This document shows, piece by piece, positions 9,372-33,562 of a DNA stretch of 64,000 bases. Under the pieces are notes generated by a model. It ran no database searches. It was not told the origin of the DNA and saw nothing but the letters and a program-made list of their open reading frames with translations. Origin of the DNA: Blastocatellia bacterium (GTDB lineage: Bacteria; Acidobacteriota; Blastocatellia; UBA7656); NCBI GenBank assembly GCA_963804815.1, contig CAWDRU010000002.1, positions 450,754-514,753 of the forward strand, given 5' to 3'. Made by a program: the position numbers and the translations under genes. Position 1 is the first letter of the stretch. Each line of letters begins with the position of its first letter.

Positions 9372-10565
9372 TCATCTCTTCCCGCGCACGAGTCCGTATT
9401 TTTCCAGAACGCTGTCTTCCCATCTGAAATAATCGTCAAACGCTTTGTCGGCTTCTACAGAATCGGCGATATCGGTCTGGACTAAAGCTTTTTCGTCCTT
9501 TCCAGCCGCATCAATTATGCCCGCCCGTTTATTAAAGATTTCGACGAGGCGTTTGCTTATTTCAGCGCTGGGCTGGTCAATCGGCGGAATTCTGTCGATG
9601 TCAGACGCAATGCCTTTCAAACGTTCGGCTACTTGATGCATATCCTGTTTCTGGCCGGGCGCACTGATTGACTCGTCCCATGCTTTTTTTCCATCTCGAA
9701 CGTGATTGGAAAGCAGTATCACGTTTCTGGTCTGGAACTCTCGCTCCTGAAGCTCGCCATAACCTTTGCCTGCCAGCGCAAAGCTCGATGCCAGAACCAG
9801 AATGCAAATGATTGCCACAGCGTTCCAACTCACGACTGCGCGGTTTGTTGCGGGCGCATCAGGATTGACCACGAATCCCAGACCGGCTCCGGCAATGAAG
9901 CCGCTCGCGTGAGCCACGTTGTTTGCGCCTATCATGATGCCGAACATGAATCCAATCGCTCCCCAGATGAGCATCTGCCTCATTATCGCTTTGCCGTAAG
10001 TCCCGCCCAGCTTGTAGCCGTAGACGGCCATCAAACCTATCAGTCCGAATATTGCCCCGCTCGCGCCCGCGCCGCCGATGTTAAAAAAATAAGATGCGAC
10101 GGCGCTCGTGACTCCGGTCAGCATATACAGGAATATGAATTTCTGAGAGCCGTAAAGCTCTTCGACCTGCGGCCCGATCTGGTAAAGGGCCGAGCTGTTG
10201 AACAGCAGGTGCATCAACCCTATGTGGAGAAAGTTGTATGTCACAAGCCTCCACCATTGGCCTGCTGTAACGGCTGGCGGATAGAGACCTCCGAAGTCGT
10301 AGAGCACAGCGCCGCTGGGGCTTTGAATAAAGGCATCGGCTCCGCGCCCGTTATTTACTTCGACTATTGCCATCAGCACGAAGAGCAGAAGGTTGATCGA
10401 AAGAATAATCAAAGAGATGAAAGAAGAACTCCCCACAGCCGCGCTCGCTCGCGCTCTGAGCGGGGGAACGGATTCTTTTCCGCACATGGGACAGGGATTT
10501 GCCGACGCTTCAACCAGCGCGCGACATGCCTGGCACATCACCAGTTTTTTTCGCTCACCAAACAT
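9372..10565 (-). CDS. rhomboid family intramembrane serine protease (paralogue of the upstream gene)
   Basis: Zinc ribbon CQAC...CPMCG. Rhomboid core with GASGAIFGLIG, HIGLMHLLFN and AHASG. Same architecture as 8035-9297. Confidence 0.85.
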   Translation of the reverse strand: MFGERKKLVMCQACRALVEASANPCPMCGKESVPPLRARASAAVGSSSFISLIILSINLLLFVLMAIVEVNNGRGADAFIQSPSGAVLYDFGGLYPPAVTAGQWWRLVTYNFLHIGLMHLLFNSSALYQIGPQVEELYGSQKFIFLYMLTGVTSAVASYFFNIGGAGASGAIFGLIGLMAVYGYKLGGTYGKAIMRQMLIWGAIGFMFGIMIGANNVAHASGFIAGAGLGFVVNPDAPATNRAVVSWNAVAIICILVLASSFALAGKGYGELQEREFQTRNVILLSNHVRDGKKAWDESISAPGQKQDMHQVAERLKGIASDIDRIPPIDQPSAEISKRLVEIFNKRAGIIDAAGKDEKALVQTDIADSVEADKAFDDYFRWEDSVLEKYGLVRGKR

Positions 10566-11838: not shown

Positions 11839-11990
11839 AAATTCTCCGAAATGTTAATGACTGAATTTAAATTAACAGAACGGCATCGCTCGTTCAAATA
11901 TCGTACGAAATAGACGATAAATAATTGGTCGATTGACAGTAAGTTTAATCTCAAATAGAATTACAAAGCCGCATTTAAGAAAGCTCCCTA

Positions 11991-12246
11991 TTAAAATAAC
12001 GTGAATTCGACATAATGATCGAAGTAAAAGCCCTGAAAGGGCGAAATTCAATAGCCGTGGGTGAAACCCACGGTATGCAATGCCACTACCACACAAGCCC
12101 TGTAAGGGCGAAATAAATCACTTGGTTTATTTCGCCCTTACAGGGCTTATAGTTTATCTTGATGCAAGACACAGGGCGATGCCCTGTGCTATTGAATTTC
12201 GCCCTTTCAGGGCTGATTATTATGTCGAATTCACGTTAAAATAATT
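11991..12246. repeat. structured palindromic element of about 256 bp. Imperfect terminal inverted repeats of about 60 bp enclose three internal hairpins, possibly a MITE or structured ncRNA.
   Basis: The left arm ttaaaataacgtgaattcgacataat...agccctgaaagggcgaaattcaatagc is mirrored by gctattgaatttcgccctttcagggct...attatgtcgaattcacgttaaaataatt. Internal hairpins: ccgtgggtgaaacccacgg (12055-12073), a perfect 21-bp-arm hairpin gccctgtaagggcgaaataaa/tttatttcgcccttacagggc (12097-12146), and cacagggcgatgccctgtg (12170-12188). Confidence 0.6.
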
Positions 12247-12503
12247 GAATTGTCCCGGAGTGATTGACTGAATTTTCAATATCGCTCTTCAATGCAGTTT
12301 TCAAAAATGTTCTCTGCAAAAGCATCCGAGGTTCGCTGGAAATCGATCAGTTGATTAGGGAAGATTTTGCTTTTGCAAGCGGTCTAAATAGATGTTGGGA
12401 AAGTAATATACGAGCAAAGGGAGAAAACATCGAAGACTGGCAGTAACTGCTAATCAAAGCCATTCCCATTGCCCTCTTGACTGGATAAAATAAGGAGAAA
12501 CGG

Positions 12504-15500
12504 ATGAAGAACCTGAACGACCGGACGCTTACAGAACTGTCTAAACGACTGGCATATATAAGAAATAAGCCGCTACTGGTAGTTTCGAGTATTATGCTTC
12601 TATCTTTTGCCGTCATAGCTTTGCCAGTAGCAATGCTTAAAGTCACCGCCGCCGGACAGCCCGCCGAATCCCAGATAAGCGAAGCCGCTCAACTACAGAT
12701 CAAGGCGCTGCTGGACGAAAAAGAGTCGCGCACGCCAGCGCAACAGAAAATAGATTCGCAACTTATTTATGCCAGCAAGATGTTTCGCGGGCAAAGTATT
12801 GCCGCCGGTGTGCCGACTCTTGAAGTAGAAGTCGGACTCGACAGCTCTGGAAAAGCTACAGTTGATATTATAACGATAATTGATGATAAGGTGCTGTCCG
12901 CGCTCAAATCAGTCGGAGCCGAAATCCTTTATTCCTCCGAAGTCTATCAGAGCATCCGCGCTGTTGTACCGATTGACAGACTTGAAACAATCGCGGCTCT
13001 TCAGCAGGTTCGATTCATTCAGCCGAAACAGGAATCCAGAACTTCCCAGCGTGTGCAGCGACCGCCGAGCTTGCCCGGTCAGGTTTCGCAAACTCCCGGC
13101 TTCGATGCGCGCGCCGCGCAGGTGCGCGCTCAAGTGTCGGAAGCGATGACTGATGCCATCCTGCCCAACGGCACTCTGAGCGTCGGCAGCGTCGCCTCCG
13201 AGGGCGATTCTACGCACAGAGCCTCGACCGCGCGCGGCACATTCAATGTTAACGGAACGGGCATCAAGATCGGTGTGATTTCAGACGGTGTAACCAATCT
13301 TGCAGCCTCTCAGGCTTTAGGTGATCTTGGAACGGTGACTGTGTTGCCGGGGCAGGTTGGGAGCGGCGACGAAGGCACGGCGATGCTGGAGATCATTCAT
13401 GACGTAGCGCCGGGCGCGCAGCTTTTCTTTGCGACTGCCGACCCTACGATCACGCAATTTGCTCAAAACATCCGCGATCTGCGGACAGCCGGTTGCGACA
13501 TCATAGTTGACGACGTGGGCTATTTCGTTGAATCGGCATTTCAGGACGGTACGCCGGGCGTCACGAATACCAACGGTGGTGCCGTCACTCAAGCCGTGAA
13601 TGATGTTGTGGCAGCGGGCGCGCTCTATTTCTCGTCGGCTGCGAATTCAGGCAACAAAAATGACAACACCTCAACCACGTGGGAAGGCGATTTCGCCAAC
13701 GGCGGCACGCTTGCCGTTGTCCCAGGCGGCGGCACTGTTCATGATTTCGATCCGTCAGCCGCTGTCGCGCAGATTGATATAATCACTGTCGGCGGGGGAA
13801 CAGGCGTTCCCATCAACCTTTCGTGGTCAGACGCGCTCGGCGCTTCATCCAACGATTATGATCTGTTCATTCTGAACAATGCCGGAACAGCTGTCAGCAC
13901 TTCTTCCACAAACATTCAGAGCGGCACGCAAGACCCTTATGAGCAGGTCAATACAAATAACACAACAGGCCGTCGCGTTGTGATTCGCCAGAAAGCGGGC
14001 GCGGCCAATCGCTTCGTTCATCTGAGCCTCAACGGCGGGCTGATAACTTTCAACACTCAGGGCGAAACGCACGGGCATGCTGCGGCCTCCGGTTGTTATG
14101 GCGTAGCGGCGACCCCTGCCTTTTCAGCTTTCAATTTCCCGCCGCCTCTGAACGTCGGGCCTTATCCGGGGGCTTATAACGGAACCAGTCAGGTGGAATT
14201 TTTCAGTTCTGACGGCCCGCGCAAGTTTTTCTATAACGGCAACGGTACAGCCATCACTCCGGGCGACTTTTCATCAACCGGCGGCACGACTATTCAGCAA
14301 CCTGTTATCTCGGCTGCCGACGGCGTAGTCGTCACCGGAGTCGGAGATTTCCCGGTTCCATTCTTCGGCACGTCAGCCGCAGCGCCGCACGCTGCCGCCA
14401 TCGCGGGCCTCATCAAATCAGCCAATCCGTCATTCACACAGGCGCAGATCAAGACGGCTCTGACCACGACGGCTATTGATATAGAGACGGCTGGAACAGA
14501 CCGCGACGCAGGGTTCGGCATCGTCATGCCTTACCCGGCGCTGCAATCGCTCGGCGTGACGGGCAAGGCGTTTCTCGAACCGGGTTCGATTACGGCGACA
14601 GAAGTTTGCTGCAACTCCAACGGATTGATCGAGCGCGGCGAAAGTGCTTCACTAAACGTCGTCTTGAATAATCCGGGGCTGTTGAACGCGACGGGCATCA
14701 CTTCAACTCTGGCTACATCAACGCCGGGCGTCACTGTACTGAGCGGCTCATCTGCTTATTCAGACCTTGCTGCAACCTCTGGCACAGGGACGAACGCGAC
14801 GCCGTTCAGCTTCTCGTTAGCCACGAATTCGGCGGTTGATCTGGTAATTAATTTTACCTTGACGGTTAGCTATGCGGGCGGATGGAATCCGTCGCAGGTA
14901 ATCAACTTCACAGTCGAAACCGGTCGCAAGCCGATCACTACGGTATTAGATACTACAACTCCGACGACCAGCACCAGCTTCCCAACATCCATAACCGGAA
15001 CGCAGACAAATCTTGTTTTCCCGGATGATCCGCCAAGCACCTGCGCGGTTCCTACAGCATTTCCGGGCACGCTTACGTCAACGACTCCAAGGTTTGATTC
15101 TTACACTTTGACGAACACAAGTGGGGCCACCGCCTGCGTAACAATTACGATAACGGCTGACAAAACCGCACTCGGCGCTGTTCAGGCAGTTGCGTATAAC
15201 GGAGCTTTCAATCCGGCAAGCGTCGGCACGAATTATCTGGCGGATCCCGGATTCAGCTCTATAGTCTTCCCCGGCTATCCCGGAGTTTTCTCCGGCAATA
15301 TTCCTGCCGCGGGAACCCTCACTGTTGTTGTGGTTGAATTGAAATCACCCGCGAATGGTTTCCCAAGCGCGGTCGGCAGCAGTTACACGCTCAAGGTGGC
15401 GGGTCTGCCCGTGACCGCTGCGCCGACGCTGGCAAAGGTCGGCTCGTTCGACGCGATAAATTCTAACGACGGGCGCGTGCTTCTGAAATGGAACTCGACT

Positions 15501-17903
15501 TATGAGGTAGAAAATCTCGGCTACAACGTCTACCGCGAAGTCGCTGGCCAGCGCACGAAAGTCAATCCTCAACTCATCGCCGGTTCGGCGCTGATCACCG
15601 GCGACAAGGTTGCGCTCGGTTCAGGAAAGGGCTATGCGTGGGGAGATCAGCCGCAGTCAACAGCCTCGGCCCGCTACTGGCTCGAAGCCGTTGACCTCAA
15701 CGGCCAGAGCACCTGGACCGGACCCGTTTCGGTCAAGTCTTTCTCCGGCAATCCCGCCGCTAACCTCGAACAGTCCGCCCTGCTGACCAGAATCGGTCTG
15801 GCTCAGGCTCAGATGACCCTCGGTCAGGGGTCAACTCCTGTCGAAGCGCGCGCGCAGGTGGCGGCGGTTTCCGCTGCGGGCTTGCAGACTCAAACGGGGC
15901 TGGCCGGTCAGGCAGCCGTCAAGATAGCTGTCAGGCGCGAAGGCTGGTATCGAATCTCGCAAGGCGAATTGGTTGCGGCGGGACTTGATTCGAGAGTCGA
16001 TCCGCGCAACCTCCAACTCTATGTTGACGGGCAGGCAGTCGGGATGGTTGTCAACGGCGAGCAGGACGGCAGATTCGAGGCTGCGGATTCACTGGAGTTC
16101 TACGGCGTGGGACTCAACAGCGCAGCCACAGACGCACACGTCTACTGGCTGGCGGCAAGCACACAACCCGGCACACGCATAAAGGCAACGCGGGCGACGG
16201 GCGGAACAGCGACCTCAGCAAGCTTCCCCTACAGCGTGGAACGCAAAGACCGGACGTTGTATTTCTCAGCCTTGAAAAACGGGGATGTGGAGAACTTCTT
16301 CGGGCCGGTCGTATCAGCGACGGGAATCGAGCAGACGCTGGCGCTGACAGGACTCGCGGCAGGGGCGGCATCTGCGAGCCTTGACGTGTCGCTGCAAGGG
16401 GTGACGGGACTGACGCATCAGGTGAGAGTGCTGCTCAATGGAGCGAACGTCGGAGTAGTGAACTTCACCGGGCAGAGTCAGGGCAAGGCTCGCCTTGCCC
16501 TATCACAGAGCCAGTTGCGAGAAGGAGTGAACACGGTGCAGCTGACGGCGCTGGGAGGCAGTTCGGACATAAGCCTTGTTGAAAGCCTGAGAGTCACCTA
16601 TCAGCGGAAGTACACGGCAGACAACAACGCGCTGAGGCTGAACGCGGCAGGCGGGCAGCAGGTGACGATAGGAGGGTTCACATCGACCGGCATACGAGTG
16701 ATGGATGTGACGGATTGGAACAACGTGCAGGAGTTGACCGGAGCAGTATTGGGAGGGAAGACGAACGGAAGCATCACAATAACGGTGCCGGGAACAGGGC
16801 CGCGAGTGTTGTATGCGTTTTCGTCAGACCGGGCGATGAGCGTGACGCCAAAGGCGAACACGCCGTCGAACCTGAGGGGAGGAAGCCCTGCCGCCGATTA
16901 CATAATGATAACGACAAGAGAGATGGCGGCGAGCCTGAATCCGTTGAAGACGTTGAGAGAGAGTCAGGGCCTTGCAGTAGCGGTCGTGGACGTAGAGGAC
17001 ATCTATGACGAGTTCAGCTACGGGAACAAGAATGCGCAGGCGGTGAAGGATTACCTGACGCTGGCCAACAGTAGTTTTGGAAGGCCGGTGAGATTCGTGC
17101 TGCTTGCAGGAGATGCGAGCTATGACCCGAAGAATTATCTGGGATACGGAGACAGCGACCTTGTGCCGACGAAGCTGTATGACAGCGGGTACATGGAAGC
17201 GGCGACAGATGATGGGTTCGTGGACTTCAATGGAGACAATGTGCCGGATGTGGCGATAGGGAGGTTGCCGGTGCGCAACGCGACGGAAGCGGCGGCAATG
17301 GTAGGAAAGATAGTTCGATATGAAAGCTCAGCAGGGTCGAATACGGTGCTGCTGTCATCAGATCTGGGAGACGGGTATAACTTCGGGTCAGTGAACACAG
17401 CGCTGAGAGGACTGCTGCCGTCCGGAGTGGGGGTGAGCGAAATAAACCGAGGAAGCGCGGATGACGGGGTAGTTAGAAATCAGCTTCTTGAGGCGATCAA
17501 CGCGGGACAGAAGATCGTGAATTATAATGGACACGGAAGCGTGACTCTGTTGAGAGGCAACATTCTGACAGGAAGTGATGCGGCAACAATGACAAACACC
17601 CAGAAGCTGTCGGTGTTTGTGATGATGACGTGTCTGAATGGATACTTTGATGATCCGGGAGTAGACAGCCTGAGCGAGAGCGTGATGAAGGCAGCGGGAG
17701 GAGCAGCGGGAGCGTGGGCATCAGCTGCGCAGTGCGAACCGTTCGGACAAGCACTGATGAATCAGGAGCTATATCGTTTGTTGTTTAACGGTCAGAATCT
17801 GACGCTGGGCGAAGCGACGGCGAAAGCAAAAGCCTCGGTCAGCGACGTTGACGTGCGAAGGTCGTGGATCTATTTCGGAGACCCGGCGATGAAGCTGAAG
17901 TAA
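12504..17903 (+). CDS. giant secreted dual-protease protein. Signal anchor, subtilase-like (S8) domain, Thr/Ser-rich beta and FN3-like middle region, C-terminal gingipain-like (peptidase C25) domain.
   Basis: 1799 aa with a ribosome-binding site ataaggaga. S8-like motifs: IGVISDGV (Asp), IIHDVAPGA (His), SAANSGN (Asn) and GTSAAAPHAAAIAGL (Ser). C25-like region: FVLLAGDASYDP...DVAIGRLPV...IVRYES...NYNGHGSV (His) ...MMTCLNGYF (Cys). A terminator hairpin lies downstream. Confidence 0.9.
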   Translation: MKNLNDRTLTELSKRLAYIRNKPLLVVSSIMLLSFAVIALPVAMLKVTAAGQPAESQISEAAQLQIKALLDEKESRTPAQQKIDSQLIYASKMFRGQSIAAGVPTLEVEVGLDSSGKATVDIITIIDDKVLSALKSVGAEILYSSEVYQSIRAVVPIDRLETIAALQQVRFIQPKQESRTSQRVQRPPSLPGQVSQTPGFDARAAQVRAQVSEAMTDAILPNGTLSVGSVASEGDSTHRASTARGTFNVNGTGIKIGVISDGVTNLAASQALGDLGTVTVLPGQVGSGDEGTAMLEIIHDVAPGAQLFFATADPTITQFAQNIRDLRTAGCDIIVDDVGYFVESAFQDGTPGVTNTNGGAVTQAVNDVVAAGALYFSSAANSGNKNDNTSTTWEGDFANGGTLAVVPGGGTVHDFDPSAAVAQIDIITVGGGTGVPINLSWSDALGASSNDYDLFILNNAGTAVSTSSTNIQSGTQDPYEQVNTNNTTGRRVVIRQKAGAANRFVHLSLNGGLITFNTQGETHGHAAASGCYGVAATPAFSAFNFPPPLNVGPYPGAYNGTSQVEFFSSDGPRKFFYNGNGTAITPGDFSSTGGTTIQQPVISAADGVVVTGVGDFPVPFFGTSAAAPHAAAIAGLIKSANPSFTQAQIKTALTTTAIDIETAGTDRDAGFGIVMPYPALQSLGVTGKAFLEPGSITATEVCCNSNGLIERGESASLNVVLNNPGLLNATGITSTLATSTPGVTVLSGSSAYSDLAATSGTGTNATPFSFSLATNSAVDLVINFTLTVSYAGGWNPSQVINFTVETGRKPITTVLDTTTPTTSTSFPTSITGTQTNLVFPDDPPSTCAVPTAFPGTLTSTTPRFDSYTLTNTSGATACVTITITADKTALGAVQAVAYNGAFNPASVGTNYLADPGFSSIVFPGYPGVFSGNIPAAGTLTVVVVELKSPANGFPSAVGSSYTLKVAGLPVTAAPTLAKVGSFDAINSNDGRVLLKWNSTYEVENLGYNVYREVAGQRTKVNPQLIAGSALITGDKVALGSGKGYAWGDQPQSTASARYWLEAVDLNGQSTWTGPVSVKSFSGNPAANLEQSALLTRIGLAQAQMTLGQGSTPVEARAQVAAVSAAGLQTQTGLAGQAAVKIAVRREGWYRISQGELVAAGLDSRVDPRNLQLYVDGQAVGMVVNGEQDGRFEAADSLEFYGVGLNSAATDAHVYWLAASTQPGTRIKATRATGGTATSASFPYSVERKDRTLYFSALKNGDVENFFGPVVSATGIEQTLALTGLAAGAASASLDVSLQGVTGLTHQVRVLLNGANVGVVNFTGQSQGKARLALSQSQLREGVNTVQLTALGGSSDISLVESLRVTYQRKYTADNNALRLNAAGGQQVTIGGFTSTGIRVMDVTDWNNVQELTGAVLGGKTNGSITITVPGTGPRVLYAFSSDRAMSVTPKANTPSNLRGGSPAADYIMITTREMAASLNPLKTLRESQGLAVAVVDVEDIYDEFSYGNKNAQAVKDYLTLANSSFGRPVRFVLLAGDASYDPKNYLGYGDSDLVPTKLYDSGYMEAATDDGFVDFNGDNVPDVAIGRLPVRNATEAAAMVGKIVRYESSAGSNTVLLSSDLGDGYNFGSVNTALRGLLPSGVGVSEINRGSADDGVVRNQLLEAINAGQKIVNYNGHGSVTLLRGNILTGSDAATMTNTQKLSVFVMMTCLNGYFDDPGVDSLSESVMKAAGGAAGAWASAAQCEPFGQALMNQELYRLLFNGQNLTLGEATAKAKASVSDVDVRRSWIYFGDPAMKLK

Positions 17904-17937
17904 GAAGGCAGCGTTCGTAATGATAGATTGTAAGAAA

Positions 17938-17972
17938 GGGCTGAGGAGGAAACTTCTCGGCCCTCTTTTTTT
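17938..17972 (+). terminator. rho-independent terminator after the first giant protease gene
   Basis: Hairpin agggctgag...ctcggccct followed by ttttttt. The same element is duplicated after the second copy. Confidence 0.6.
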
Positions 17973-18367
17973 GAAAGGGCCGATCAGTGGTTAAACGATG
18001 ATATTGATTATTGACAGTAGAGATGCATCACCTCTAGAATAAAGCCGCTGCATTATGGAGCAAATGTAGCTTGTTTGTCGGGTCAGGGCTAATGTGGCAA
18101 TTAACATAATTAAACCTGCGAGAGTAATTAGTTTTATTGCTCTTTAAATGGGTGATTGGACTTGACTGCTCTGTAAACTCAACCCCCTTTCTCAATCTGA
18201 ATAAAACGGTAGCCTGGCTAATCAGGCTGGCGCTATTCAATCGAACAATGGTTATTAACGCTTGCAACAGGAATAGACCTCCTGCAAAAGAAGTCGAATC
18301 TTCGACTGTCATCAAAATAAGGAAAGAAATAATTTTGCAAGAGGTCTAATAGAATAAGGAGAGACTT

Positions 18368-21300
18368 ATGAAAAAACTGAACGGCTCAAAGCTTACCAGA
18401 TTGCCGAATCGCCCGGCACATAAAAAGATCAACCCTGTTCTGATACTTTCGAGTATCCTTTTATTGTCGATTGCCATTATAGCTTTGCCAGGCCTGAGGA
18501 CGAGAGTCACCGCTGCGGGCCAGCCCCAAAAGAGCAGCGCCGAATCGCAGATAAGCGAAGCCGCTCAACTACAGATCAAAGCACTGCTGGACGAAAAAGA
18601 GTCGCGCACGCCAGCGCAACAGAAAATAGATTCGCAACTTATTTATGCCAGTAAGATGTATCGCGGGCAGAGCGTCGCCGCAGGGATTTCAACCCTCGAA
18701 GTGAATGTCGGACTTGAAAGCGACGGAAGAGTAGTCGTTGACCTGACGGCCTATGTGGTCGATGACAAACTGCTCGCCGGGATCAAGGCAGCCGGGGGCG
18801 AAGTCATGATCGTTTCCGCGCCTTATGGCAGCGTCCGCGTCAAAGTTTCCATAAATCAGTTAGAGACAATCGCGGGCTTCTCGCAGGTTCGGTTCATTCA
18901 GCCGGAGCAAAAAGCTCTGGTGTCGTCTCAGCGCACAAGGCCGACCGACAACGTGTCGGATCAGGCCGCGCAGTCTCCGAGTTTTGAAGCGCGCGCCGAG
19001 TCTGTGCGCGAACAACTCTCTGACGCACTGAATAACGCCATACTGCCCAACGGCACACTCAGCACCGGCAACTTCGCGTCCGAAGGCGACACCACGCATC
19101 GAGCCACAACCGCGCGGGGCACTTTCAATGTTGACGGAACGGGCATCAAGATCGGCGTCCTCTCAAACGGCGTGGTCAGTTTGGCTCAGGCTCAGGCGAC
19201 GGGCGATCTTGGACCGGTGACCGTGTTGGTGGGACAAACAGGTTCAGCCGACGAAGGCACGGCGATGCTTGAGATCGTTCACGACATCGCTCCGGGTGCG
19301 CAGCTTTTCTTTGCCACAGGCTTGCCGACCATCACCCAGTTTGCGCAAAACATCCGCGACCTGCGCACGGCGGGTTGCGACATCATCGTTGATGATCTGG
19401 GCTACTTTGTAGAATCGCCGTTTCAGGACGGGCAGACCGGAACCACCAACACCAACGGCGGCGTTGTCACTCAAGCCGTCAACGATGTCGTAGCCGCAGG
19501 CGCGCTGTATTTTTCGTCAGCGGCAAATTCGGGCAACAAGAATGACAACACGTCAGGCACGTGGGAAGGCGATTTCGTCAGCGGCGGCACGCTGGCCCTT
19601 ATCCCCGGCGGCGGATTAGTTAACGACTTCGACCCGTCGGCAGCGGTCGCGCAGAATAACCTGCTCACCCTCGGCGGAGGCGCAACCTCTCCCATCAGTA
19701 TTGCGTGGTCAGACCCGCTCGGCGGCTCATCGAACGATTATGACTTGTTCATCCTGAACAATGCGGGAACGACTGTGGTCGCGTCTTCGACCAATACTCA
19801 GAGCGGCACGCAGGACCCTTATGAACAGACGGGCAGCAACACGACTAACAACCGGGCCGTGATTCGCCAGAAAGCGGGTGCGCTCAATCGCTTCCTTCAC
19901 CTGTCAACCAACAGAGGGCGTCTAACTTTCAGCACCGATGGCGAAACGCACGGCCATGCCTGTGCCACCGGAGCCTACGGCGTGGCTGCAACGCCAGCCT
20001 ACTCGCCGTTCAACTTCGCGCCGCCGCCGGTATTCGGCCCTTTCCCCAACTTCTACAGCACAGCGGATAAAGTCGAAACCTTCAGTTCTGACGGCCCGCG
20101 CCGAATTTTCTTTAACGGTAATGGTACGGCCATAACCCCCGGCGATTTTTCATCGACTGGCGGTCAGGTCTTGCAGCAACCGCTCATCACGGCTGCCGAC
20201 GGCGTGGCTGTAACGGGCGTGGGAGGATTCGCGTCGCCGTTCTTCGGAACCTCGGCAGCAGCGCCGCACGCCGCCGCTATCGCGGGACTAATCAAATCGG
20301 CCAATCCGTCGTTTACGCAGGCGCAGATCAAGACGGCCCTGACCACGACGGCGCTTGATATTGAAGCGGCAGGCACAGACCGCGATTCCGGGTTCGGCAC
20401 CATCATGCCTTACGCCGCTCTGCAATCGCTCGGTGTGACCGGCAAAGCCTTTATCGAACTCGGCACGGCCACGGCCACGGAAACCTGTTGCAACCTGAAC
20501 GGTTTGATCGAACGAGGCGAAGGCGCTTCGCTCAACGTCGTTTTAAATAATCCGGGATTGTTGAACGCGACGGGCATCACTTCAACTCTGGCTACTACAA
20601 CACCGGGCGTAAGCATACTGAACAACACGTCAGCCTACACAGACCTTGTGGCGACCTCCGGCACAGCGGCGAACACAACGCCGTTCGCCTTCTCATTGTC
20701 CACAATTGCTGCGGTTGATGTGACGATTAATTTCACCTTGACGGTCAGTTACACGGGCGGGTGGAATCCGTCGCAGGTAATCAATTTCACGGTTGAAACA
20801 GGCCGTAAATCCATTACCACGACTATAGACACCACAGCGCCGACGACCAGCACCAGCTTCCCGACGACGGCGACAAACAACCAGACAGCGCGTCTGTTCC
20901 GCGCAGACCCGGCCAGCACCTGCGCCGTTCCGCACGCATTCCCCGGAACATCGGGAGCAGGAAACAGGAGGTTCGATTCTTACACCTTGACCAATCCTGC
21001 CGGTTCTCCGACGGCCTGCGTCACAGTAACGCTAACGATTGACAAAGCTGCGACAGACTTTTTACAGGCTGTCGCATATTCGGGCAGCTTTAACCCGGCC
21101 AGTTTGGGCACGAACTTCATAGCCGATATTGGGGCCAGTCCCAGTATTGGTTATGCCAAGTCTCTTTCTTTCAATCTTGCCGGAGGCGCGACTGTTGTTA
21201 TTGTCGTAAACGAAACAACAGCCGCTGGCGCGGGAACAAACACGCCTTACACGTTGAGGGTGGCGGGCATACCCATAACCGCTGCGCCGACGCTGGCAAA

Positions 21301-23767
21301 GGTCGGCTCGTTTGACGCGATAAATTCTAACGACGGGCGCGTGCTTCTGAAATGGAACTCGACTTACGAAGTAGAAAATCTCGGCTACAACGTCTACCGC
21401 GAAGCCAGCGGCCAGCGCACGAAAGTCAATCCTCAACTCATCGCCGGTTCGGCGCTGATCACCGGCGACAAGGTTGCGCTCGGTTCAGGAAAGGGCTATG
21501 CGTGGGGAGATCAGCCGCAGTCAACAGCCTCGGCCCGCTACTGGCTCGAAGCCATTGACCTCAACGGCCAGAGCACCTGGACCGGACCCGTTTCGGTCAA
21601 GTCTTTCTCCGGCAATCCCGCCGCTAACCTCGAACAGTCCGCCCTGCTGACCAGAATCGGGCTTGCTCAGGCTCAGATGACCCTCGGTCAAGGGTCAACT
21701 CCTGTTGAATCACGCGCGCAGGTGGCGGCGGTTTCCGCCGCGGGCTTGCAGACTCAAACGGGGCTGGCCGGTCAGGCAGCCGTCAAGATAGCTGTCAGGC
21801 GCGAAGGCTGGTATCGAATCTCGCAAGGCGAATTGGTTGCGGCGGGACTTGATTCGAGAGTCGATCCGCGCAACCTCCAACTCTATGTTGACGGGCAGGC
21901 AGTCGGGATGGTCGTCAACGGCGAGCAGGACGGCAGATTCGAGGCTGCGGATTCACTGGAGTTCTACGGCGTGGGACTCAACAGCGCAGCCACAGACGCG
22001 CACGTCTACTGGCTGGCGGCAAGCACACAACCCGGCACACGCATAAAGGCGACGCGGGCGACGGGCGGAACAGCGGCCTCGGCCAGCTTCCCCTACAGCG
22101 TGGAACGCAAAGACCGGACGTTGTATTTCTCGGCCCTGAAAAACGGGGATGTGGAGAACTTCTTCGGGCCGGTCGTATCAGGGACGGGAATCGAGCAGAC
22201 GCTGGCGCTGACAGGACTCGCGGCAGGGGCGGCATCTGCGAGCCTTGACGTGTCGCTGCAAGGGGTGACGGGACTGACGCATCAGGTGAGAGTGCTGCTC
22301 AACGGAGCGAACGTCGGAGTAGTGAACTTCACCGGGCAAAGTCAGGGCAAGTCGAGCCTTGTCATATCACAGAGCCAGTTGCGAGAAGGAGTGAACACGG
22401 TGCAGCTGACGGCGCTGGGAGGCAGTTCGGACATAAGCCTTGTTGAAAGCCTGAGAGTCACCTATCAGCGGAAGTACACGGCAGACAACAACGCGCTGAG
22501 GCTGAACGCGGCAGGCGGGCAGCAGGTGACGATAGGAGGGTTCACATCGACCGGCATACGAGTGATGGACGTGACGGATTGGAACAACGTGCAGGAGTTG
22601 ACCGGAGCAGTATTGGGAGGGAAGACGAACGGAAGCATCACAATAACGGTGGCTGGAACAGGGCCGCGAGTGTTGTATGCGTTTTCGTCAGACCGGGCGA
22701 TGAGTGTGACGCCAAAGGCGAACACGCCGTCAAACCTGAGAGGAGGAAGCCCTGCCGCCGACTACATAATGATAACGACAAGAGAGATGGCGGCGAGCCT
22801 GAATCCGTTGAAGACGTTGAGAGAGAGTCAGAGCCTTGCAGTAGCGGTCGTGGACGTAGAGGACATCTATGACGAGTTCAGCTACGGGAACAAGAATCCA
22901 CAGGCGGTGAAGGATTACCTGACGCTGGCCAACAGCAGTTTTGGAAGGCCGGTGAGATTCGTGCTGCTTGCAGGAGATGCGAGCTATGACCCGAAGAATT
23001 ATCTGGGATACGGAGACAGCGACCTTGTGCCGACGAAGCTGTATGACAGCGGGTACATGGAAGCGGCGACAGATGACGGGTTCGTGGACTTCAATGGAGA
23101 CAATGTGCCGGATGTGGCGATAGGGCGGTTGCCTGTGAAAAACGCGACGGAAGCGGCGGCAATGGTAGGAAAGATAGTTCGGTACGAAAGTTCAACAGGG
23201 TCGAATACGGTGCTGCTGTCATCAGATCTGGGAGACGGGTATAACTTCGGGTCAGTGAACACAGCGCTGAGAGGACTGCTGCCGTCTGGAGTGGGGGTGA
23301 GCGAAATAAACCGAGGCAGTGCGGATGACGGGGTAGTTAGAAATCAGCTTCTTGAGGCGATCAACGCGGGACAGAAGATCGTGAATTATAACGGGCACGG
23401 AAGCGTGACTCTGTTGAGAGGCAACATTCTGACAGGAAGTGATGCGGCAACAATGACAAACACCCAGAAGCTGACGGTGTTTGTGATGATGACGTGTCTG
23501 AACGGATACTTTGATGATCCGGGAGTAGACAGCCTGAGCGAGAGCGTGATGAAATCGAATGGAGGAGCAGCGGGAGCGTGGGCATCGACAGCGCAGTGCG
23601 AACCGTTCGGACAAGCACTGATGAATCAGGAGCTATATCGTTTGTTGTTTAACGGTCAGAATCTGACGCTGGGCGAAGCGACGGCGAAAGCAAAAGCCTC
23701 GGTCAGCGACGTTGACGTGCGAAGGTCGTGGATCTATTTCGGAGACCCGGCGATGAAGCTGAAGTAA
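18368..23767 (+). CDS. tandem paralogue of the giant S8 + C25 dual-protease protein
   Basis: Exactly 1799 aa, with the same motifs (GTSAAAPHAAAIAGL; NYNGHGSV; MMTCLNGYF). The C-terminal 830 aa are about 98 percent identical to the first copy. The N-terminal 970 aa are about 70 percent identical. Confidence 0.9.
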   Translation: MKKLNGSKLTRLPNRPAHKKINPVLILSSILLLSIAIIALPGLRTRVTAAGQPQKSSAESQISEAAQLQIKALLDEKESRTPAQQKIDSQLIYASKMYRGQSVAAGISTLEVNVGLESDGRVVVDLTAYVVDDKLLAGIKAAGGEVMIVSAPYGSVRVKVSINQLETIAGFSQVRFIQPEQKALVSSQRTRPTDNVSDQAAQSPSFEARAESVREQLSDALNNAILPNGTLSTGNFASEGDTTHRATTARGTFNVDGTGIKIGVLSNGVVSLAQAQATGDLGPVTVLVGQTGSADEGTAMLEIVHDIAPGAQLFFATGLPTITQFAQNIRDLRTAGCDIIVDDLGYFVESPFQDGQTGTTNTNGGVVTQAVNDVVAAGALYFSSAANSGNKNDNTSGTWEGDFVSGGTLALIPGGGLVNDFDPSAAVAQNNLLTLGGGATSPISIAWSDPLGGSSNDYDLFILNNAGTTVVASSTNTQSGTQDPYEQTGSNTTNNRAVIRQKAGALNRFLHLSTNRGRLTFSTDGETHGHACATGAYGVAATPAYSPFNFAPPPVFGPFPNFYSTADKVETFSSDGPRRIFFNGNGTAITPGDFSSTGGQVLQQPLITAADGVAVTGVGGFASPFFGTSAAAPHAAAIAGLIKSANPSFTQAQIKTALTTTALDIEAAGTDRDSGFGTIMPYAALQSLGVTGKAFIELGTATATETCCNLNGLIERGEGASLNVVLNNPGLLNATGITSTLATTTPGVSILNNTSAYTDLVATSGTAANTTPFAFSLSTIAAVDVTINFTLTVSYTGGWNPSQVINFTVETGRKSITTTIDTTAPTTSTSFPTTATNNQTARLFRADPASTCAVPHAFPGTSGAGNRRFDSYTLTNPAGSPTACVTVTLTIDKAATDFLQAVAYSGSFNPASLGTNFIADIGASPSIGYAKSLSFNLAGGATVVIVVNETTAAGAGTNTPYTLRVAGIPITAAPTLAKVGSFDAINSNDGRVLLKWNSTYEVENLGYNVYREASGQRTKVNPQLIAGSALITGDKVALGSGKGYAWGDQPQSTASARYWLEAIDLNGQSTWTGPVSVKSFSGNPAANLEQSALLTRIGLAQAQMTLGQGSTPVESRAQVAAVSAAGLQTQTGLAGQAAVKIAVRREGWYRISQGELVAAGLDSRVDPRNLQLYVDGQAVGMVVNGEQDGRFEAADSLEFYGVGLNSAATDAHVYWLAASTQPGTRIKATRATGGTAASASFPYSVERKDRTLYFSALKNGDVENFFGPVVSGTGIEQTLALTGLAAGAASASLDVSLQGVTGLTHQVRVLLNGANVGVVNFTGQSQGKSSLVISQSQLREGVNTVQLTALGGSSDISLVESLRVTYQRKYTADNNALRLNAAGGQQVTIGGFTSTGIRVMDVTDWNNVQELTGAVLGGKTNGSITITVAGTGPRVLYAFSSDRAMSVTPKANTPSNLRGGSPAADYIMITTREMAASLNPLKTLRESQSLAVAVVDVEDIYDEFSYGNKNPQAVKDYLTLANSSFGRPVRFVLLAGDASYDPKNYLGYGDSDLVPTKLYDSGYMEAATDDGFVDFNGDNVPDVAIGRLPVKNATEAAAMVGKIVRYESSTGSNTVLLSSDLGDGYNFGSVNTALRGLLPSGVGVSEINRGSADDGVVRNQLLEAINAGQKIVNYNGHGSVTLLRGNILTGSDAATMTNTQKLTVFVMMTCLNGYFDDPGVDSLSESVMKSNGGAAGAWASTAQCEPFGQALMNQELYRLLFNGQNLTLGEATAKAKASVSDVDVRRSWIYFGDPAMKLK

Positions 23768-23801
23768 GAAGGCTGCGTCCGATGTAATAAAATGTAAGAA
23801 A

Positions 23802-23836
23802 GGGCTGAGGAGGAAACTTCTCGGCCCTCTTTTTTT
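23802..23836 (+). terminator. rho-independent terminator after the second giant protease gene
   Basis: Identical hairpin plus T-run to the one at 17938-17972. Confidence 0.6.
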
Positions 23837-23995
23837 GGCTAAGGCCGGACACTGTTTGACTCCGGGATTGTTTTCTCTTAACCCTTCCGATAAAATCCTT
23901 GATGTCGTATTCTAGCCGTTATGGTCTCTCAGGCGGACAGAGAGCGAACGTGCCTGAATTCGCTCAATCTCATCGCTCAGAAGGACGGGCTTTTG

Positions 23996-25654
23996 ATGAC
24001 ACCGAAAAAACGACACTTGCTTCTCGTGGTGGCGTTGGTTTTGCCACTTACGTTTGCTGGCGCGCACCCCGCGCAACGTACAGCCGGGCAAACACAGGAT
24101 GATTCTGCTGGAAGAAAAAAGATAGCCGAAGATTTCGCGGAAGCCCTCCTGATGGCAAAAGACAAGTCCGCCGCCCAGATCGATTTTGACCGCATAACCA
24201 AATCTTCAATCTCAGGGATGCTGCGCACGCTCGACCCTCACTCTATGTATTTCGACCGGAAGCAATGGGAAGACTTTCAAAACGATCAGCACAGCCGTTA
24301 TTACGGCATCGGATCAGCCATCGTACAGCGTAACGGTAAAGTCTACATCTGGTCGCCTACGGACGGGACGGCCTCTTTTCGGGCAGGGCTTCGTTACGGC
24401 GATCATATCGTCGAGATCAATGGAGATTCGACCACCGGCTGGACTCAGGCGCAGGTCAGAAGCAAGCTGTTAGGCCCGGAAGGCACTCAACTGACCCTCA
24501 AGGTAGCGAGACTTGGTGTTGAAAAACCGCTCGAATTCAAGCTCACGCGCGGCGCTGTGCCGCTGCCTTCGGTGACCAACTATTTCATGCTCGGCAACGG
24601 CGTGGGCTACATAAACCTTGAGCGTGGATTCAATACGACTACATTTGAGGAAGTAGCAAAAGCGTTAGGCGAACTTCGCGATCAGGGAATGACCTCGCTG
24701 GTCTTCGACCTGCGCGGTAATCACGGCGGATTGGTAGATCAGGCGTGGCGCGTTTCAAATCTCTTCCTTTATCGCAATCAAAAGATACTTTCGATGCGAG
24801 GCCGCCCGACCGTCCTTCCCAACCGGGAATACAGCGCGAACAACCCTGCGCCCGACGACTACCCGATAGTCGTTTTGATCAACCGCGAGTCGGCATCGGC
24901 AGCAGAGATCGTCGCCGGAGCATTGCAGGATCATGACCGCGCGCGGCTGGTCGGCGAAAACAGCTTTGGCAAAGGGCTGGTCCAGAATCCATTCTCGCTG
25001 TCGGACGGTTCTGCGTTGATATTGACGACGGGGCACTATTACACGCCGAGCGGACGCTTGATTCAACGCGAATACAGCGGACGATCTTTTTATGACTACT
25101 ACCTCAAGCGCGGCGATAAAGAAGCGATCAATCGCACGGAAGAGAAACGCACCGACAGCGGGCGCACTGTTTACGGCGGCGGCGGAATCGACCCGGATGT
25201 CGAAGTAAAGGTGAGAATCACGCCTAAAGAGTTAGAGCTTCAGCGCGTGTGGTTCGAGCCTGTATTTGAGTTCGTGCATGTGCTCGTGGCGGGCAAGCTT
25301 TCGGGATTCGGCGAGTACAAGCTGGAACGTCCAGCCGATCACCAGCATCGCCTCTCGCCGAGTGAATACGCTATCAGCGACAAGCTGGTGGCTGCGTTCA
25401 AAAGTTTTATTCACGAGCGCAAAGACCTGAAAGCCGACGAGACACGCATAGACAAAGAAACGGATTTCATAAAGCGCCAGATTCGTTACGAACTCGTGAC
25501 GGCTGCATACGGCTCTGAGACTGCCTATCAGGTGCTGCTCGATGTGGACAATCAGGTTCAGCGCGCGATTACAGAGATGCCGAAAGCAAAGGTCATGGCC
25601 GAAGACATTCGCCGTTTGCGCGCCGGAGCCCGCGACGAGATCCGCAGACAATAA
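23996..25654 (+). CDS. S41 family C-terminal processing (tail-specific) peptidase
   Basis: Signal peptide MTPKKRHLLLVVALVLPLTFA, a PDZ-like region, and S41 catalytic motifs VFDLRGNHGGL and VLINRESASAAEIVAGALQD (Ser/Lys dyad region). The ORF track opens at 23921. The start at Met26 was chosen because of the signal peptide. Confidence 0.8.
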   Translation: MTPKKRHLLLVVALVLPLTFAGAHPAQRTAGQTQDDSAGRKKIAEDFAEALLMAKDKSAAQIDFDRITKSSISGMLRTLDPHSMYFDRKQWEDFQNDQHSRYYGIGSAIVQRNGKVYIWSPTDGTASFRAGLRYGDHIVEINGDSTTGWTQAQVRSKLLGPEGTQLTLKVARLGVEKPLEFKLTRGAVPLPSVTNYFMLGNGVGYINLERGFNTTTFEEVAKALGELRDQGMTSLVFDLRGNHGGLVDQAWRVSNLFLYRNQKILSMRGRPTVLPNREYSANNPAPDDYPIVVLINRESASAAEIVAGALQDHDRARLVGENSFGKGLVQNPFSLSDGSALILTTGHYYTPSGRLIQREYSGRSFYDYYLKRGDKEAINRTEEKRTDSGRTVYGGGGIDPDVEVKVRITPKELELQRVWFEPVFEFVHVLVAGKLSGFGEYKLERPADHQHRLSPSEYAISDKLVAAFKSFIHERKDLKADETRIDKETDFIKRQIRYELVTAAYGSETAYQVLLDVDNQVQRAITEMPKAKVMAEDIRRLRAGARDEIRRQ

Positions 25655-25673: not shown

Positions 25674-25723
25674 GGCTAAACAAAAATGGCTGAGTCCTCG
25701 GACTCAGCCATTTTTGTTTAGCC
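25674..25723. terminator. bidirectional terminator between convergent S41 and DinB genes
   Basis: Perfect inverted repeat ggctaaacaaaaatggctgagtcc / ggactcagccatttttgtttagcc with a 3-nt loop and T/A runs on both strands. Its right arm overlaps the DinB stop codon. Confidence 0.7.
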
Positions 25724-26242
25724 TGATGTTTCAGTCGGCCAATCGGGCGCGGGCCTGCCCAGCCATATCCACGCGATGTAATCTACTAAAGGCGGTGCGC
25801 CACCTACTTCGCGCAGCCGGGCATTGATCTGCCCTCGATGATAAAGGCTGTGCAGTGCTACCTGAAGCACAGTCTCGGAAATCGCTGCCACCTCCGGCGC
25901 GCGTCCCAATTGCTGCTCCACCATTTTAGCCCACGGCGTAAGTGCTGGCTCCGATATTTTTTCATCATCCAGAGTTGCAAGATGAGCGAATATTTCGTCG
26001 TAGTAATCGCGCCCCCACTTCATCAGCGACTGTGCATCATCGAATGTTGGAGGAGGCGTTTCGCGCCACTCATGTCGCCAGAGAAGCAGGAACGCACGTT
26101 GAACCAGGTGCAGGTGATAGAGGTAATCGCGCAACTTCGCATCCGTTTTTCCATTGTCGGACGCAAGCACAGCAGTCCACACCGCTGCATCAGCCCATTG
26201 CATATGATTGTAAAGATCCGTGAGAGTTTTTATGTCCGGCAT
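25718..26242 (-). CDS. DinB family (DinB_2/DUF664) damage-inducible protein
   Basis: Four-helix-bundle DinB/YfiT signature with conserved His residues (YLYHLHLVQRAF...SLYHRGQI). Confidence 0.75.
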   Translation of the reverse strand: MPDIKTLTDLYNHMQWADAAVWTAVLASDNGKTDAKLRDYLYHLHLVQRAFLLLWRHEWRETPPPTFDDAQSLMKWGRDYYDEIFAHLATLDDEKISEPALTPWAKMVEQQLGRAPEVAAISETVLQVALHSLYHRGQINARLREVGGAPPLVDYIAWIWLGRPAPDWPTETSG

Positions 26243-31302: not shown

Positions 31303-31313
31303 GAGAGGCGGAG

Positions 31314-32051: not shown

Positions 32052-32076
32052 TGAAGCAGGTCGGACAGGAAATTTT

Positions 32077-33132: not shown

Positions 33133-33164
33133 AATTTTTGATTGACTTTGAAAGGAGTCGAATT

Positions 33165-33539: not shown

Positions 33540-33562
33540 ATGACATACGGCAGGCAGGGGTG

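Follow-up and report, generated by a model that had tools for sequence, protein, structure and literature searches.

Two genes in tandem in a Blastocatellia bacterium join a subtilisin-fold head with a candidate Ser/Glu active site to a C-terminal C25 peptidase cassette

Can two classes of protease work on a single exported polypeptide, and how did one member of the Blastocatellia, which are abundant soil bacteria, come to carry two such genes next to each other? Both questions are raised by a pair of open reading frames in the 64-kb window (the whole stretch of DNA that was analysed), for which a first-pass annotation had proposed a head-to-tail tandem of 1799-aa proteins, each combining a subtilase-like and a gingipain-like domain. 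Both reading frames are indeed present on the + strand, and their full-length products share 82% identity. The central proposal of two protease-type domains on one chain was also borne out, as each member of the pair has a domain of subtilisin fold together with a complete C25 domain, with export a prediction. The genes and their signals are located as follows.

12504..17903, + strand: gene A, 1799 aa, bearing the additional (A-type) head at the locus
18368..23767, + strand: gene B, 1799 aa, ortholog of the single gene at the locus in relatives
11933..11961, + strand: gene A promoter-like site, TTGACA, 17-nt spacer, TAGAAT (11/12 matches)
18011..18040, + strand: gene B promoter-like site, TTGACA, 18-nt spacer, TAGAAT (hexamer pair common to gene A)
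12492-12497, + strand: gene A ribosome-binding site AAGGAG, 6 nt before the ATG
18356-18361, + strand: gene B ribosome-binding site AAGGAG, 6 nt before the ATG
17937..17964, + strand: gene A intrinsic-terminator-like GC-rich hairpin and T run
23801..23828, + strand: gene B intrinsic-terminator-like hairpin and T run, same sequence as that of gene A
12504..12653, + strand: gene A N-terminal basic stretch and hydrophobic segment (aa 24-42), then VTAAG
12666..13175, + strand: gene A conserved N-terminal region (aa 55-224), without Pfam match

As had been suggested, each copy possesses its own ribosome-binding site, with AAGGAG found 6 nt 5' of either ATG, and its own terminator, the GC-rich hairpin and T run behind the genes being identical between the copies. 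Both N-termini have a basic stretch and then a hydrophobic segment of 19 aa (aa 24-42; mean Kyte-Doolittle approximately 2.6, 2.58 in gene A), a putative Sec signal peptide or signal anchor. Downstream of this segment, aa 55-224 of gene A are conserved throughout the family, as judged from the family consensus, and may by their position constitute a propeptide; the N-terminal 229 aa gave no Pfam match, Inhibitor_I9 included. The product of each gene would be a modular protein of some 190 kDa, exported by the Sec route and divided into a head (aa 1-960) and a cassette (aa 961-1799).

The head is made up of the conserved N-terminal region, a subtilisin-fold domain interrupted by an insertion, and two beta modules.

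13176..14579, + strand: gene A subtilisin-fold domain, aa 225-692, with Ser260, Asp261, Glu290, Asn381, His525 and Ser624
19058..20458, + strand: gene B subtilisin-fold domain, aa 231-697, with Ser266, Asn267, Glu296, Asn387 and Ser629
13677..14063, + strand: beta-rich insertion of gene A, about 130 aa (aa 392-520), strands in the AlphaFold model
14580..15383, + strand: gene A head modules of unassigned family, aa 693-960

An HMM scan of the N-terminal domain agreed with the proposed subtilase, as Pfam Peptidase_S8 (PF00082) was detected in both copies (E 1e-16 and 8e-15; 61.5 and 55.4 bits against a curated cut-off of 21.8), the match spanning HMM positions 72-288 in copy A and merely 135-288 in copy B. 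The AlphaFold model of the domain, based on an alignment of 106 sequences, reached a pLDDT of 92.2 and displays the subtilisin alpha/beta fold of the S8 family; an input of 8 sequences had given a pLDDT of 40 and was set aside in favour of the deeper one. Strand 255-260 of the model terminates at S260, while helices begin at E290 and T623, and the beta-rich insertion is located inside the fold, after the oxyanion Asn and before the presumed catalytic Ser. The remainder of the head, aa 693-960 of gene A, shows the greatest divergence between the copies (47-78% identity in a windowed profile). The CARDB and FN3 modules that had been suggested beyond the subtilisin-fold domain were detected by Pfam nowhere in aa 690-1134, a region with no Pfam match even at E 10 and no PDB sequence match.

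A full S8 catalytic set had been read from motifs in each protein, and only half of it stood. The motifs themselves were located at the places given, and the Ser and Asn align with their subtilisin counterparts, whereas the Asp and His positions are occupied by Ser and Glu. The mapping comes from an hhalign comparison between the family profile and subtilisin BPN', the sequence of which was verified against PDB entry 1sbn. A global alignment with the insertion retained placed the template onto the insertion and was discarded; deleting aa 392-519 cured this and thereby provided a reliable subtilisin alignment (95-97% probability), in which D32 corresponds to S260, S33 to D261, H64-G-T to E290-G-T, N155 to N381 and S221 to S624. 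The secondary structure of the model is in agreement with this mapping, Glu290 opening the helix equivalent to that of His64. With an 8-sequence profile, hhalign aligned the Ser helix alone to subtilisin or kumamolisin, and phmmer and profile searches against the PDB recovered only the Ser region and weak fragments of the Asp region, leaving the His region unaligned. When His64 was located in the Pfam HMM via subtilisin fragments, the S8 match was seen to begin beyond the His position.

Conservation among 367 relatives follows the same mapping. Ser624 and Asn381, the equivalents of Ser221 and Asn155 and the predicted S8-type nucleophile and oxyanion residue, are each kept in 363 of them, and Glu290, which stands at the position of the catalytic His64, in 362. 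The His of IIHDVAPGA, previously named as catalytic, is His299, nine residues past the His64-equivalent position, and its column is variable (H in 300, Y in 40 and F in 18 relatives). The Asp of GVISDGV, claimed for each protein, is an Asn in copy B, which reads GVLSNGV; this column (D in 290 relatives, N in 73, or 20%) aligns with Ser33 and not with the catalytic Asp32, the counterpart of which is Ser260. With Ser and Glu at the canonical positions, His299 unconserved and the Asp replaced in copy B, the claim of a complete Asp/His/Ser triad therefore fails. Motif reading alone produced a wrong triad in this case, and copy B would have been labelled 'complete' in error.

The four relatives that have lost S624 are instructive, as all four also lack E290 and three also lack N381, while H525 and D336 are retained. 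Such joint loss of Ser624, Glu290 and Asn381 in degenerate members is the behaviour expected of a working active site. The invariant His525 was considered as the missing catalytic His and rejected, since its alignment places it near subtilisin Gly166, which forms the floor of the S1 pocket, and since it stays in relatives devoid of the other three residues; a catalytic part for it is still conceivable, though not as the leading idea. We infer from these residue patterns that the head is an active serine protease with a Ser/Glu active site, in which Ser624 would be the nucleophile, Glu290 the general base and Asn381 part of the oxyanion hole; where subtilisins have Asp32, the head has Ser260. 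Residue 261, be it Asp or Asn, may orient Glu290.

Such an arrangement sets the head apart from the subtilases proper (S8, PF00082; e.g. subtilisin BPN' and Tk-SP), with which it shares the GTSxAxPH nucleophile motif and the oxyanion Asn, but not the catalytic His64 and Asp32 or the absence of a beta-rich insertion of approximately 130 aa. Between helix C and the strand that follows it, the head has a short link, as do the 266-aa chains of subtilisin BPN' at the top of the Foldseek list, which are nine residues shorter than the wild type. Sedolisins (S53; kumamolisin, PSCP) likewise combine the subtilisin fold with a Glu at the subtilisin His position, where it serves as general base, and in kumamolisin the distance from this Glu to the APGA strand is presumably the same as in the head (12 residues). 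Sedolisins differ, however, in having an Asp four residues, or one helix turn, past the Glu, where the head has Met294 (345/367), and an Asp in the oxyanion hole, where the head has Asn381. The Ser/Glu/Asp triad and oxyanion Asp that characterise S53 are thus not found in the head. An hhalign comparison with kumamolisin gave a probability of 2.3%, an unreliable value used only against S53 membership. Two triad types are recognised in a recent review, Ser/His/Asp and the acid-active Ser/Glu/Asp (PMC11593635). If Glu290 is the general base, the head would represent a third catalytic solution in the subtilisin clan beside these two. The family at issue counts 5026 representatives of 50%-identity clusters at E<=1e-30, with named clade members from Acidobacteriota, Phycisphaerae, Nitrospirales and proteobacterial MAGs, and the clade carries the database label 'S8 family serine peptidase' although the classical His and Asp are missing.

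The longest structural alignments were obtained with the germination subtilases CspB, CspA and CspC (352-362 residues, compared to about 260 for plain subtilases), which like the head combine a subtilisin fold with a large beta insertion. Their sequence identity to the head is just 16-17%, CspB has the classical triad that the head lacks, and their biology, spore germination in Firmicutes, is unlike that of the head. CspA and CspC are pseudoproteases, and subtilase pseudoproteases are on record (PMC7200643), which brings up the possibility that the head is a binding or regulatory pseudoprotease like C. difficile CspC and CspA, in which case only the C25 domain would be catalytic and the idea of two protease classes would be void. 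That these proteins, of all structures, align over the largest number of residues would fit such a role, as would the occurrence of neither Asp nor His at the Asp32 and His64 positions and a His region that no sequence profile could align to a solved subtilase. A head relieved of catalysis would, however, hardly be expected to keep Ser624, Asn381 and Glu290 at about 99% each across diverse relatives, to lose the three together in the few degenerate members, and still to present the GTSAAAPH motif and the conserved N-terminal region. A pseudoprotease is considered unlikely on these grounds, if worth bearing in mind, and an active Ser/Glu head is preferred.

The second protease-type domain resides in the C-terminal cassette.

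15384..17900, + strand: gene A C-terminal cassette, aa 961-1799 (839 aa), with His1677 and Cys1710
21248..23764, + strand: gene B C-terminal cassette, aa 961-1799, with His1677 and Cys1710

The cassette combines a conserved beta module (consensus PT.A.L.SF.A..DG.VLL.W..G.EV.NLG(F/Y)NV) and a linker with a PorU-like stretch at aa 1134-1465 and a C25 catalytic domain at aa 1466-1798. The spacer of some 700 aa that had been drawn between the two protease domains is accordingly shorter, since aa 1134-1465, about 330 residues of what had been counted as spacer, form the PorU-like portion of the C25 module. The gingipain-like domain itself was confirmed by HMM search, with Pfam Peptidase_C25 (PF01364) matched at E 2e-75 in both copies, at 255-258 bits against a cut-off of 23 and over model positions 1-374 of 374. 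The proposed His/Cys dyad also proved sound: H1677 (NYNGH) and C1710 (MMTC) align with those of PorU (6za2) and gingipain R RgpB (1cvr, 4ief) and are invariant in 129/129 relatives, and the AGDASYDP and GRLPV motifs pair with FGDGAHD and GRFPV of PorU. The residues of the Arg- or Lys-specific S1 pocket lie beyond the reliably aligned part. A whole-model score and a His followed by a Cys, the hallmarks of gingipain-type C25 enzymes, are both seen, and the domain, with an intact dyad, is a putative active peptidase. The cassette would constitute a PorU/gingipain-type C25 cysteine protease with His1677 and Cys1710 as catalytic residues.

Its closest kin differ in layout. The gingipains RgpB and Kgp (C25) have the full-length C25 model match, the His/Cys alignment and the multidomain exported type in common with the present proteins, but carry C25 near the N-terminus, followed by Ig-like/adhesin domains and a T9SS CTD, whereas here C25 is at the extreme C-terminus. 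For aa 1134-1799, no solved structure and no NCBIfam model matches better than PorU (6za2, NF033707), whose N-terminal region and C25 domain come in the same order and whose His/Cys dyad, GD..D motif and GR.P motif align. The PorU equivalog models NF033707 and NF052324 were nevertheless matched below their cut-offs (253-257 bits against 420 and 201-204 against 450). The best-matching stretch of the PorU model comprises positions 3-536 of 1095, and the protein stops 1 residue past the C25 domain. The C-terminal half and the CTD of PorU are missing from the cassette, which moreover is fused behind large heads. Neither protein gave a Pfam match to Por_Secre_tail, and no T9SS genes were found in the 64-kb window. 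To our knowledge, no type IX secretion system is known from the Acidobacteriota, the phylum of the host.

The cassette is placed at the protein end in 130 of 133 cases. Across the reference genomes, 97 cassette ORFs were distributed over 73 loci, 20 of which hold at least two, and an S8 head was present on only one of the 97 genes, other heads being Ig, FG-GAP, cohesin, CarboxypepD_reg, LTD plus Exo_endo_phos, and Sortilin/BNR. Besides the present two genes, 13 database cluster representatives contain both Pfam domains (S8 and C25). What had been described as an unusual architecture is hence real and rare, but already in the databases as one of many head-cassette combinations; the S8-C25 fusion is a rare combination of known kinds, machine-annotated in public databases, and not a unique invention. 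In the library searched, no paper united C25, subtilase, Acidobacteria and PorU.

In the Blastocatellia, a single conserved protease module at the C-terminus is thus combined with many unrelated heads, and these swappable heads would amount either to an extracellular proteolysis toolkit or to a new sorting device. In the former case, which is the one favoured here, the product of each gene would be an extracellular or cell-surface protein whose two protease domains degrade or process proteins. In the latter, the cassette would not be degradative but would act in the manner of PorU, as a processing or transpeptidase module by which the heads of its own chain or of sister proteins are matured, released or anchored, with the subtilisin head as one cargo among many. 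The best matches in NCBIfam and the PDB, which are to the T9SS sortase PorU, would suit such a function, as would the near-constant C-terminal position, the numerous and often tandem paralogs per genome, the discordance between head and cassette phylogenies, and heads that resemble cargo and have no link to proteolysis (Ig, FG-GAP, BNR, cohesin, LTD plus Exo_endo_phos). Since LTD plus nuclease heads fit poorly with targeting of the C25 domain, they are a hint that the cassette serves the heads. The scores well under the PorU cut-offs, the absent PorU C-terminal half and CTD and the lack of a T9SS gene in the window speak against it, however, and varied accessory domains are common on modular secreted enzymes, which is a simpler account of the heads. 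A processing module is therefore judged quite improbable. Decidedly doubtful is a bolder version, according to which the cassette is a built-in PorU-like sorting protease displaying swappable heads and the subtilisin head is, in addition, a third (Ser/Glu, Asn oxyanion) catalytic type. If it were true, the cassette would cut within the linker that precedes it, either in its own chain or in sister proteins, and then release the head or anchor it covalently to the cell surface, and the Blastocatellia would possess a previously unrecognised surface-display system for subtilisin-fold enzymes, nucleases, and Ig, FG-GAP and BNR adhesins.

The origin of the pair can be approached through a long repeat shared by the two genes.

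15383..17973, + strand: A side of the high-identity tract, 2594 bp, 96.8% identity to 21247-23837

The tract extends 70 bp beyond the stop codon and across the terminator. The heads of A and B are only 71.6% identical in protein (76% in DNA), compared to 97.5% for the cassettes. Such similar cassettes on heads that are just 72% identical point to homogenisation, either by gene conversion or by a swap of cassettes in the recent past, with the head-cassette junction as the apparent place where recombination happens. The head of gene A is 91.1% identical to P0001, while the cassette of A and that of P0001 share 78%; the head of gene B is 88-92% identical to P0002, P0003 and P0004 (92.3% for P0002), and B and P0004 have heads at 88% and cassettes at 57.5% identity. 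Gene B as a whole is 87% identical to the genes of L001 and L002. The slot at this locus is filled by a B-type gene alone in L002, by an A-type gene alone in L007, and by a B-type gene plus a cassette gene with a BNR head in L001. Two head lineages hold this locus in different relatives, with both present here. Short-read assemblies of the locus break at the 2.6-kb repeat.

A repeat of this kind raises the suspicion that the tandem is an assembly artefact, a collapsed or chimeric repeat. A second, independent assembly at NCBI, of what is essentially the same organism, has both genes broken at aa 1056 (P0005, P0008), about 290 bp inside the repeat, which indicates that the repeat is hard to assemble. 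The same assembly, however, contains both heads, each continuing into a cassette; between the tracts there are 77 differing positions and 5 gaps, the flanking DNA that follows each is distinct, and in relatives the corresponding slot is filled by one cassette gene or by two. An artefact is, in view of this, extremely improbable. The model as a whole, that is, an exported two-protease protein of head and cassette, with a Ser/Glu head and a tandem origin by cassette homogenisation, builds on an architecture, a fold, a residue mapping, a conservation and recombination patterns that are established, from which activity, export and biological role are extrapolated, and we hold it to be probable, with ample room for revision.

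The surroundings of the pair had been described as a dense protease locus. The adjacent S41 and CHAT proteins are present as described, the neighbours comprising an S41 peptidase with PDZ, a CHAT-TPR protein and two rhomboids, but this arrangement is conserved among close relatives only. The S41 peptidase was for this reason dismissed as a functional partner, its gene being adjacent in the close relatives L001, L002 and L007 and not in L003, L004 and L005. The gene order at the locus could simply be inherited rather than functional.

The tandem pair of 1799-aa genes reported in the first-pass annotation, each with its own ribosome-binding site and terminator, was found as described for both copies (A and B), and the observation as a whole proved largely real. 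Its interpretation needs three corrections, concerning the S8 triad, the extent and labels of the spacer, and the place of the fusion as a rare family member; two points merit testing, namely the active site with Glu in place of His and what the cassette does. The genes and their surroundings are laid out as follows.

1626-1710, minus strand: tRNA-Leu (GAG), the sole tRNA in the window
8035-9297 and 9372-10565, minus strand: two tandem rhomboid-family intramembrane protease genes
11933 (A) and 18011 (B): promoter-like TTGACA-N17/18-TAGAAT, by sequence match
12504-17903, plus strand: gene A, ORF of 1799 codons
18368-23767, plus strand: gene B, ORF of 1799 codons, head to tail with A
17937-17964 (A) and 23801-23828 (B): hairpin-plus-T terminator, identical in both
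23921-25654, plus strand: S41/PDZ C-terminal processing peptidase
25718-26242, minus strand: DinB-family protein
26279-29389, minus strand: 1036-aa TPR-CHAT protein
30178-36046, plus strand: tripartite export set (MacB-type permease, ABC ATPase, HlyD-type adaptor, outer-membrane efflux protein)
36227-49391 and 50294-54358, plus strand: rhamnose-type sugar utilisation cluster, the span including a CarboxypepD_reg/beta-barrel gene

Both genes carry an AAGGAG box 6 nt 5' of the ATG, and both proteins begin with basic residues, a strongly hydrophobic 19-mer and VTAAG, a pattern that fits Sec export. Peptidase_S8 and Peptidase_C25 were matched in each by Pfam. In sequence searches, solved subtilases align to the S8 half over the Ser region only. 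An AlphaFold model of this half, built from 106 family members, reached a pLDDT of 92.2, and the Csp germination subtilases, which likewise have a large beta insertion within the fold, align with it over 352-362 residues. Given this confident model and the structural alignments, the subtilisin fold predicted for the N-terminal domain holds.

The complete S8 catalytic set read from motifs did not survive alignment. A profile of 367 family sequences, from which a 128-aa insertion (aa 392-519) had been removed, was aligned to subtilisin BPN' (sequence verified as identical to 1sbn) with 95-97% probability.

Residues of subtilisin BPN' and their counterparts in copy A in the profile alignment, with occurrence among the 367 relatives
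Asp32: Ser260, kept in 363
Ser33: Asp261, Asp in 290 and Asn in 73 (Asn in copy B)
His64-Gly-Thr: Glu290-Gly-Thr, Glu290 kept in 362
Asn155: Asn381, kept in 363
Gly166: His525, kept in 366
Ser221: Ser624, kept in 363

The secondary structure of the model is consistent with this mapping, with the first strand ending at Ser260 and helices starting at Glu290 and Thr623. The Asn and Ser originally proposed are thus upheld, while the proposed Asp is residue 261, next to the Asp32 position, and the proposed His is His299, a variable residue (His in 300, Tyr in 40 and Phe in 18 relatives) away from the His64 position. On this alignment, the S8 domain is not a classical-triad enzyme, since the His64 and Asp32 positions are held by Glu290 and Ser260. 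It also differs from the sedolisins, having an invariant Met four positions beyond the Glu and Asn as its oxyanion residue; a 2024 review recognised only these two types, the classical S8 triad and sedolisin, in the subtilisin fold (PMC11593635).

We infer that catalysis would proceed through a Ser624/Glu290 pair, with Asn381 forming the oxyanion hole and residue 261 (Asp or Asn) perhaps serving as an orienting partner. That the S8 head is a pseudo-protease is a live rival, to be weighed with the loss of both classical positions on the one hand and the pattern of decay on the other: in the four sequences lacking Ser624, Glu290 is also gone in all four and Asn381 in three, as expected of residues working together, and His525 and Asp336 are retained in every one. 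These naturally "dead" clade members outside the window (P0014, P0017, P0264 and P0306), in which Ser624 and Glu290, and usually Asn381 too, have been substituted jointly, would be useful negative controls. Separately, the near-invariant His525 (nt 14076-14078) aligns with a residue at the floor of the S1 specificity pocket, and may be a P1 specificity determinant or have a structural role.

For the C25 half, the assignment made from the His/Cys dyad and the AGDASYD and GRLPV motifs was correct. Among solved structures, PorU (6za2) gives the best sequence match and gingipain R the next; H1677 (NYNGHGS) and C1710 (MMTCLNG) align with the catalytic dyad of both and are invariant across 129 relatives, and the AGDASYD and GRLPV motifs align with conserved motifs of PorU. 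Among NCBIfam models, aa 1134-1798 come closest to that of the type IX sortase PorU and to one related to it, although the scores fall far under the cut-offs.

The region common to all C25 relatives extends to the protein end from near aa 965-972, where it opens with a conserved beta module (PT.A.L.SF.A..DG.VLL.W..G.EV.NLG(F/Y)NV); in 130 of 133 cases, the C25 module stops no more than 10 residues short of the C-terminus. Part of the spacer of about 700 aa falls within the C25 module, and the labels CARDB and FN3 given to it lack support. When one genome per species was scanned, 97 ORFs with a cassette turned up, spread over 73 loci and nearly all of them in MAGs of Blastocatellia or Pyrinomonadaceae, with many per genome and two or more in 20 of the loci. 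Only one of the 97 had a subtilisin-fold head; the others included Ig repeats, FG-GAP repeats, cohesin, CarboxypepD_reg, Sortilin/BNR, and LTD with an endonuclease/exonuclease/phosphatase enzyme. Tandem cassette genes with differing heads occur in relatives (S8 and BNR in locus L001, G8 and S8 in L003). Many Blastocatellia-type cassettes (46-64% identity) were also seen in MAGs labelled "uncultured Clostridia bacterium" (L009, L010, L015, L019, L021, L025, L038, L044, L046, L053, L061, L072), at least nine of these loci coming from one MAG, and the label looks doubtful.

The subtilisin-fold clade is itself large, with 5026 representatives of 50%-identity clusters (E<=1e-30), its named members coming from Acidobacteriota, Phycisphaerae, Nitrospirales and proteobacterial MAGs. 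The domains that accompany it on the C-terminal side are highly diverse (e.g. CarboxypepD_reg, DUF4214, Calx-beta, HYR, FG-GAP, DUF11 and P-domain). Besides A and B, the matches listed include 13 cluster representatives in which S8 and C25 occur together: six Blastocatellia-type fusions (P0001-4, P0006, P0007) and seven more distant ones (P0101, P0383, P0023, P0024, P0025, P0043 and P0174, the last found in the cassette search only), the first two of the seven carrying a Deltaproteobacteria or Pseudomonadota label. By nearest neighbour, fusion S8 domains are scattered among non-fusion heads, that of copy A lying at 15% distance from heads with other tails versus 22% from copy B. The architecture first called unusual is indeed rare, but judged from these comparisons it is one member of a modular head-plus-cassette family and not an isolated oddity.

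Heads (aa 1-960) and cassettes (aa 961-1799) of the two copies and their relatives differ markedly in identity.

Identity of heads and cassettes
A vs B: head 71.6%, cassette 97.5%
A vs P0001: head 91.1%, cassette 78.0%
B vs P0002: head 92.3%, cassette 82.9%
B vs P0003: head 91.7%, cassette 82.2%
B vs P0004: head 88.2%, cassette 57.5%

These conflicting identities argue that heads and cassettes have separate histories. Synonymous sites are near saturation between the A and B heads (~72% identical), while the DNA from aa 961 to 70 bp past the stop codon is 96.8% identical over 2594 bp, which points to homogenisation of the cassettes in this Blastocatellia (Acidobacteriota) genome by gene conversion or a recent swap. 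Occupancy of the slot between the thiolase and S41 genes varies among relatives: a B-type gene alone in L002, an A-type gene alone in L007, a B-type gene plus a BNR-head cassette gene in L001, and an A-type plus a B-type gene in the window. Two NCBI MAG fragments, P0005 (1056 aa, 1055/1056 residues matching A) and P0008 (an exact prefix of B), are both cut ~290 bp into the repeat common to A and B.

On the minus strand 5' of A lie a thiolase, the two rhomboids, whose position is conserved in L001, L002 and L007, and a 3-hydroxyacyl-CoA dehydrogenase. The S41 and CHAT neighbours cited for a dense protease locus are present, but the S41/DinB/CHAT order 3' of B is kept in close relatives only and both genes are absent from L003-L005; we do not read the surroundings as a functional protease island. 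No evidence ties the MacB/HlyD/OEP export genes to the protease genes. The rhamnose cluster comprises an aldolase/dehydrogenase fusion, alpha-L-rhamnosidase, FGGY kinase and ABC sugar transporter, and is followed by a giant, TonB-type 1354-aa CarboxypepD_reg and outer-membrane beta-barrel protein.

Both leaders are long (~540 nt for A, ~330 nt for B). That of A contains a nested palindrome of 256 bp (11990-12245) with four copies of AGCCCTGNAAGGGCGAAAT, a unit with no further occurrence within the window, and two inverted matches to Acido-Lenti-1 RNA (Rfam RF01687; 12029-12073, minus strand, and 12170-12214, plus strand) lie inside it. The palindrome looks like an insertion, because the B leader is without it. 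Short conserved boxes are common to both leaders, namely TTTTGCAAG(C/A)GGTCTAA, CTGCAAAAG and the promoter-like ATTGACAGTA...TAGAAT..AAAGCCGC (12369-12390 and 18334-18350; also 11930-11970 and 18008-18050), and may form a common regulatory element. Finally, the coding strand is strikingly purine-rich at the C25 end of each cassette (16001-18000 and 22001-24000), with a GC skew of +0.21 to +0.23 and an AT skew of +0.16 to +0.18, compared with ~0 elsewhere.
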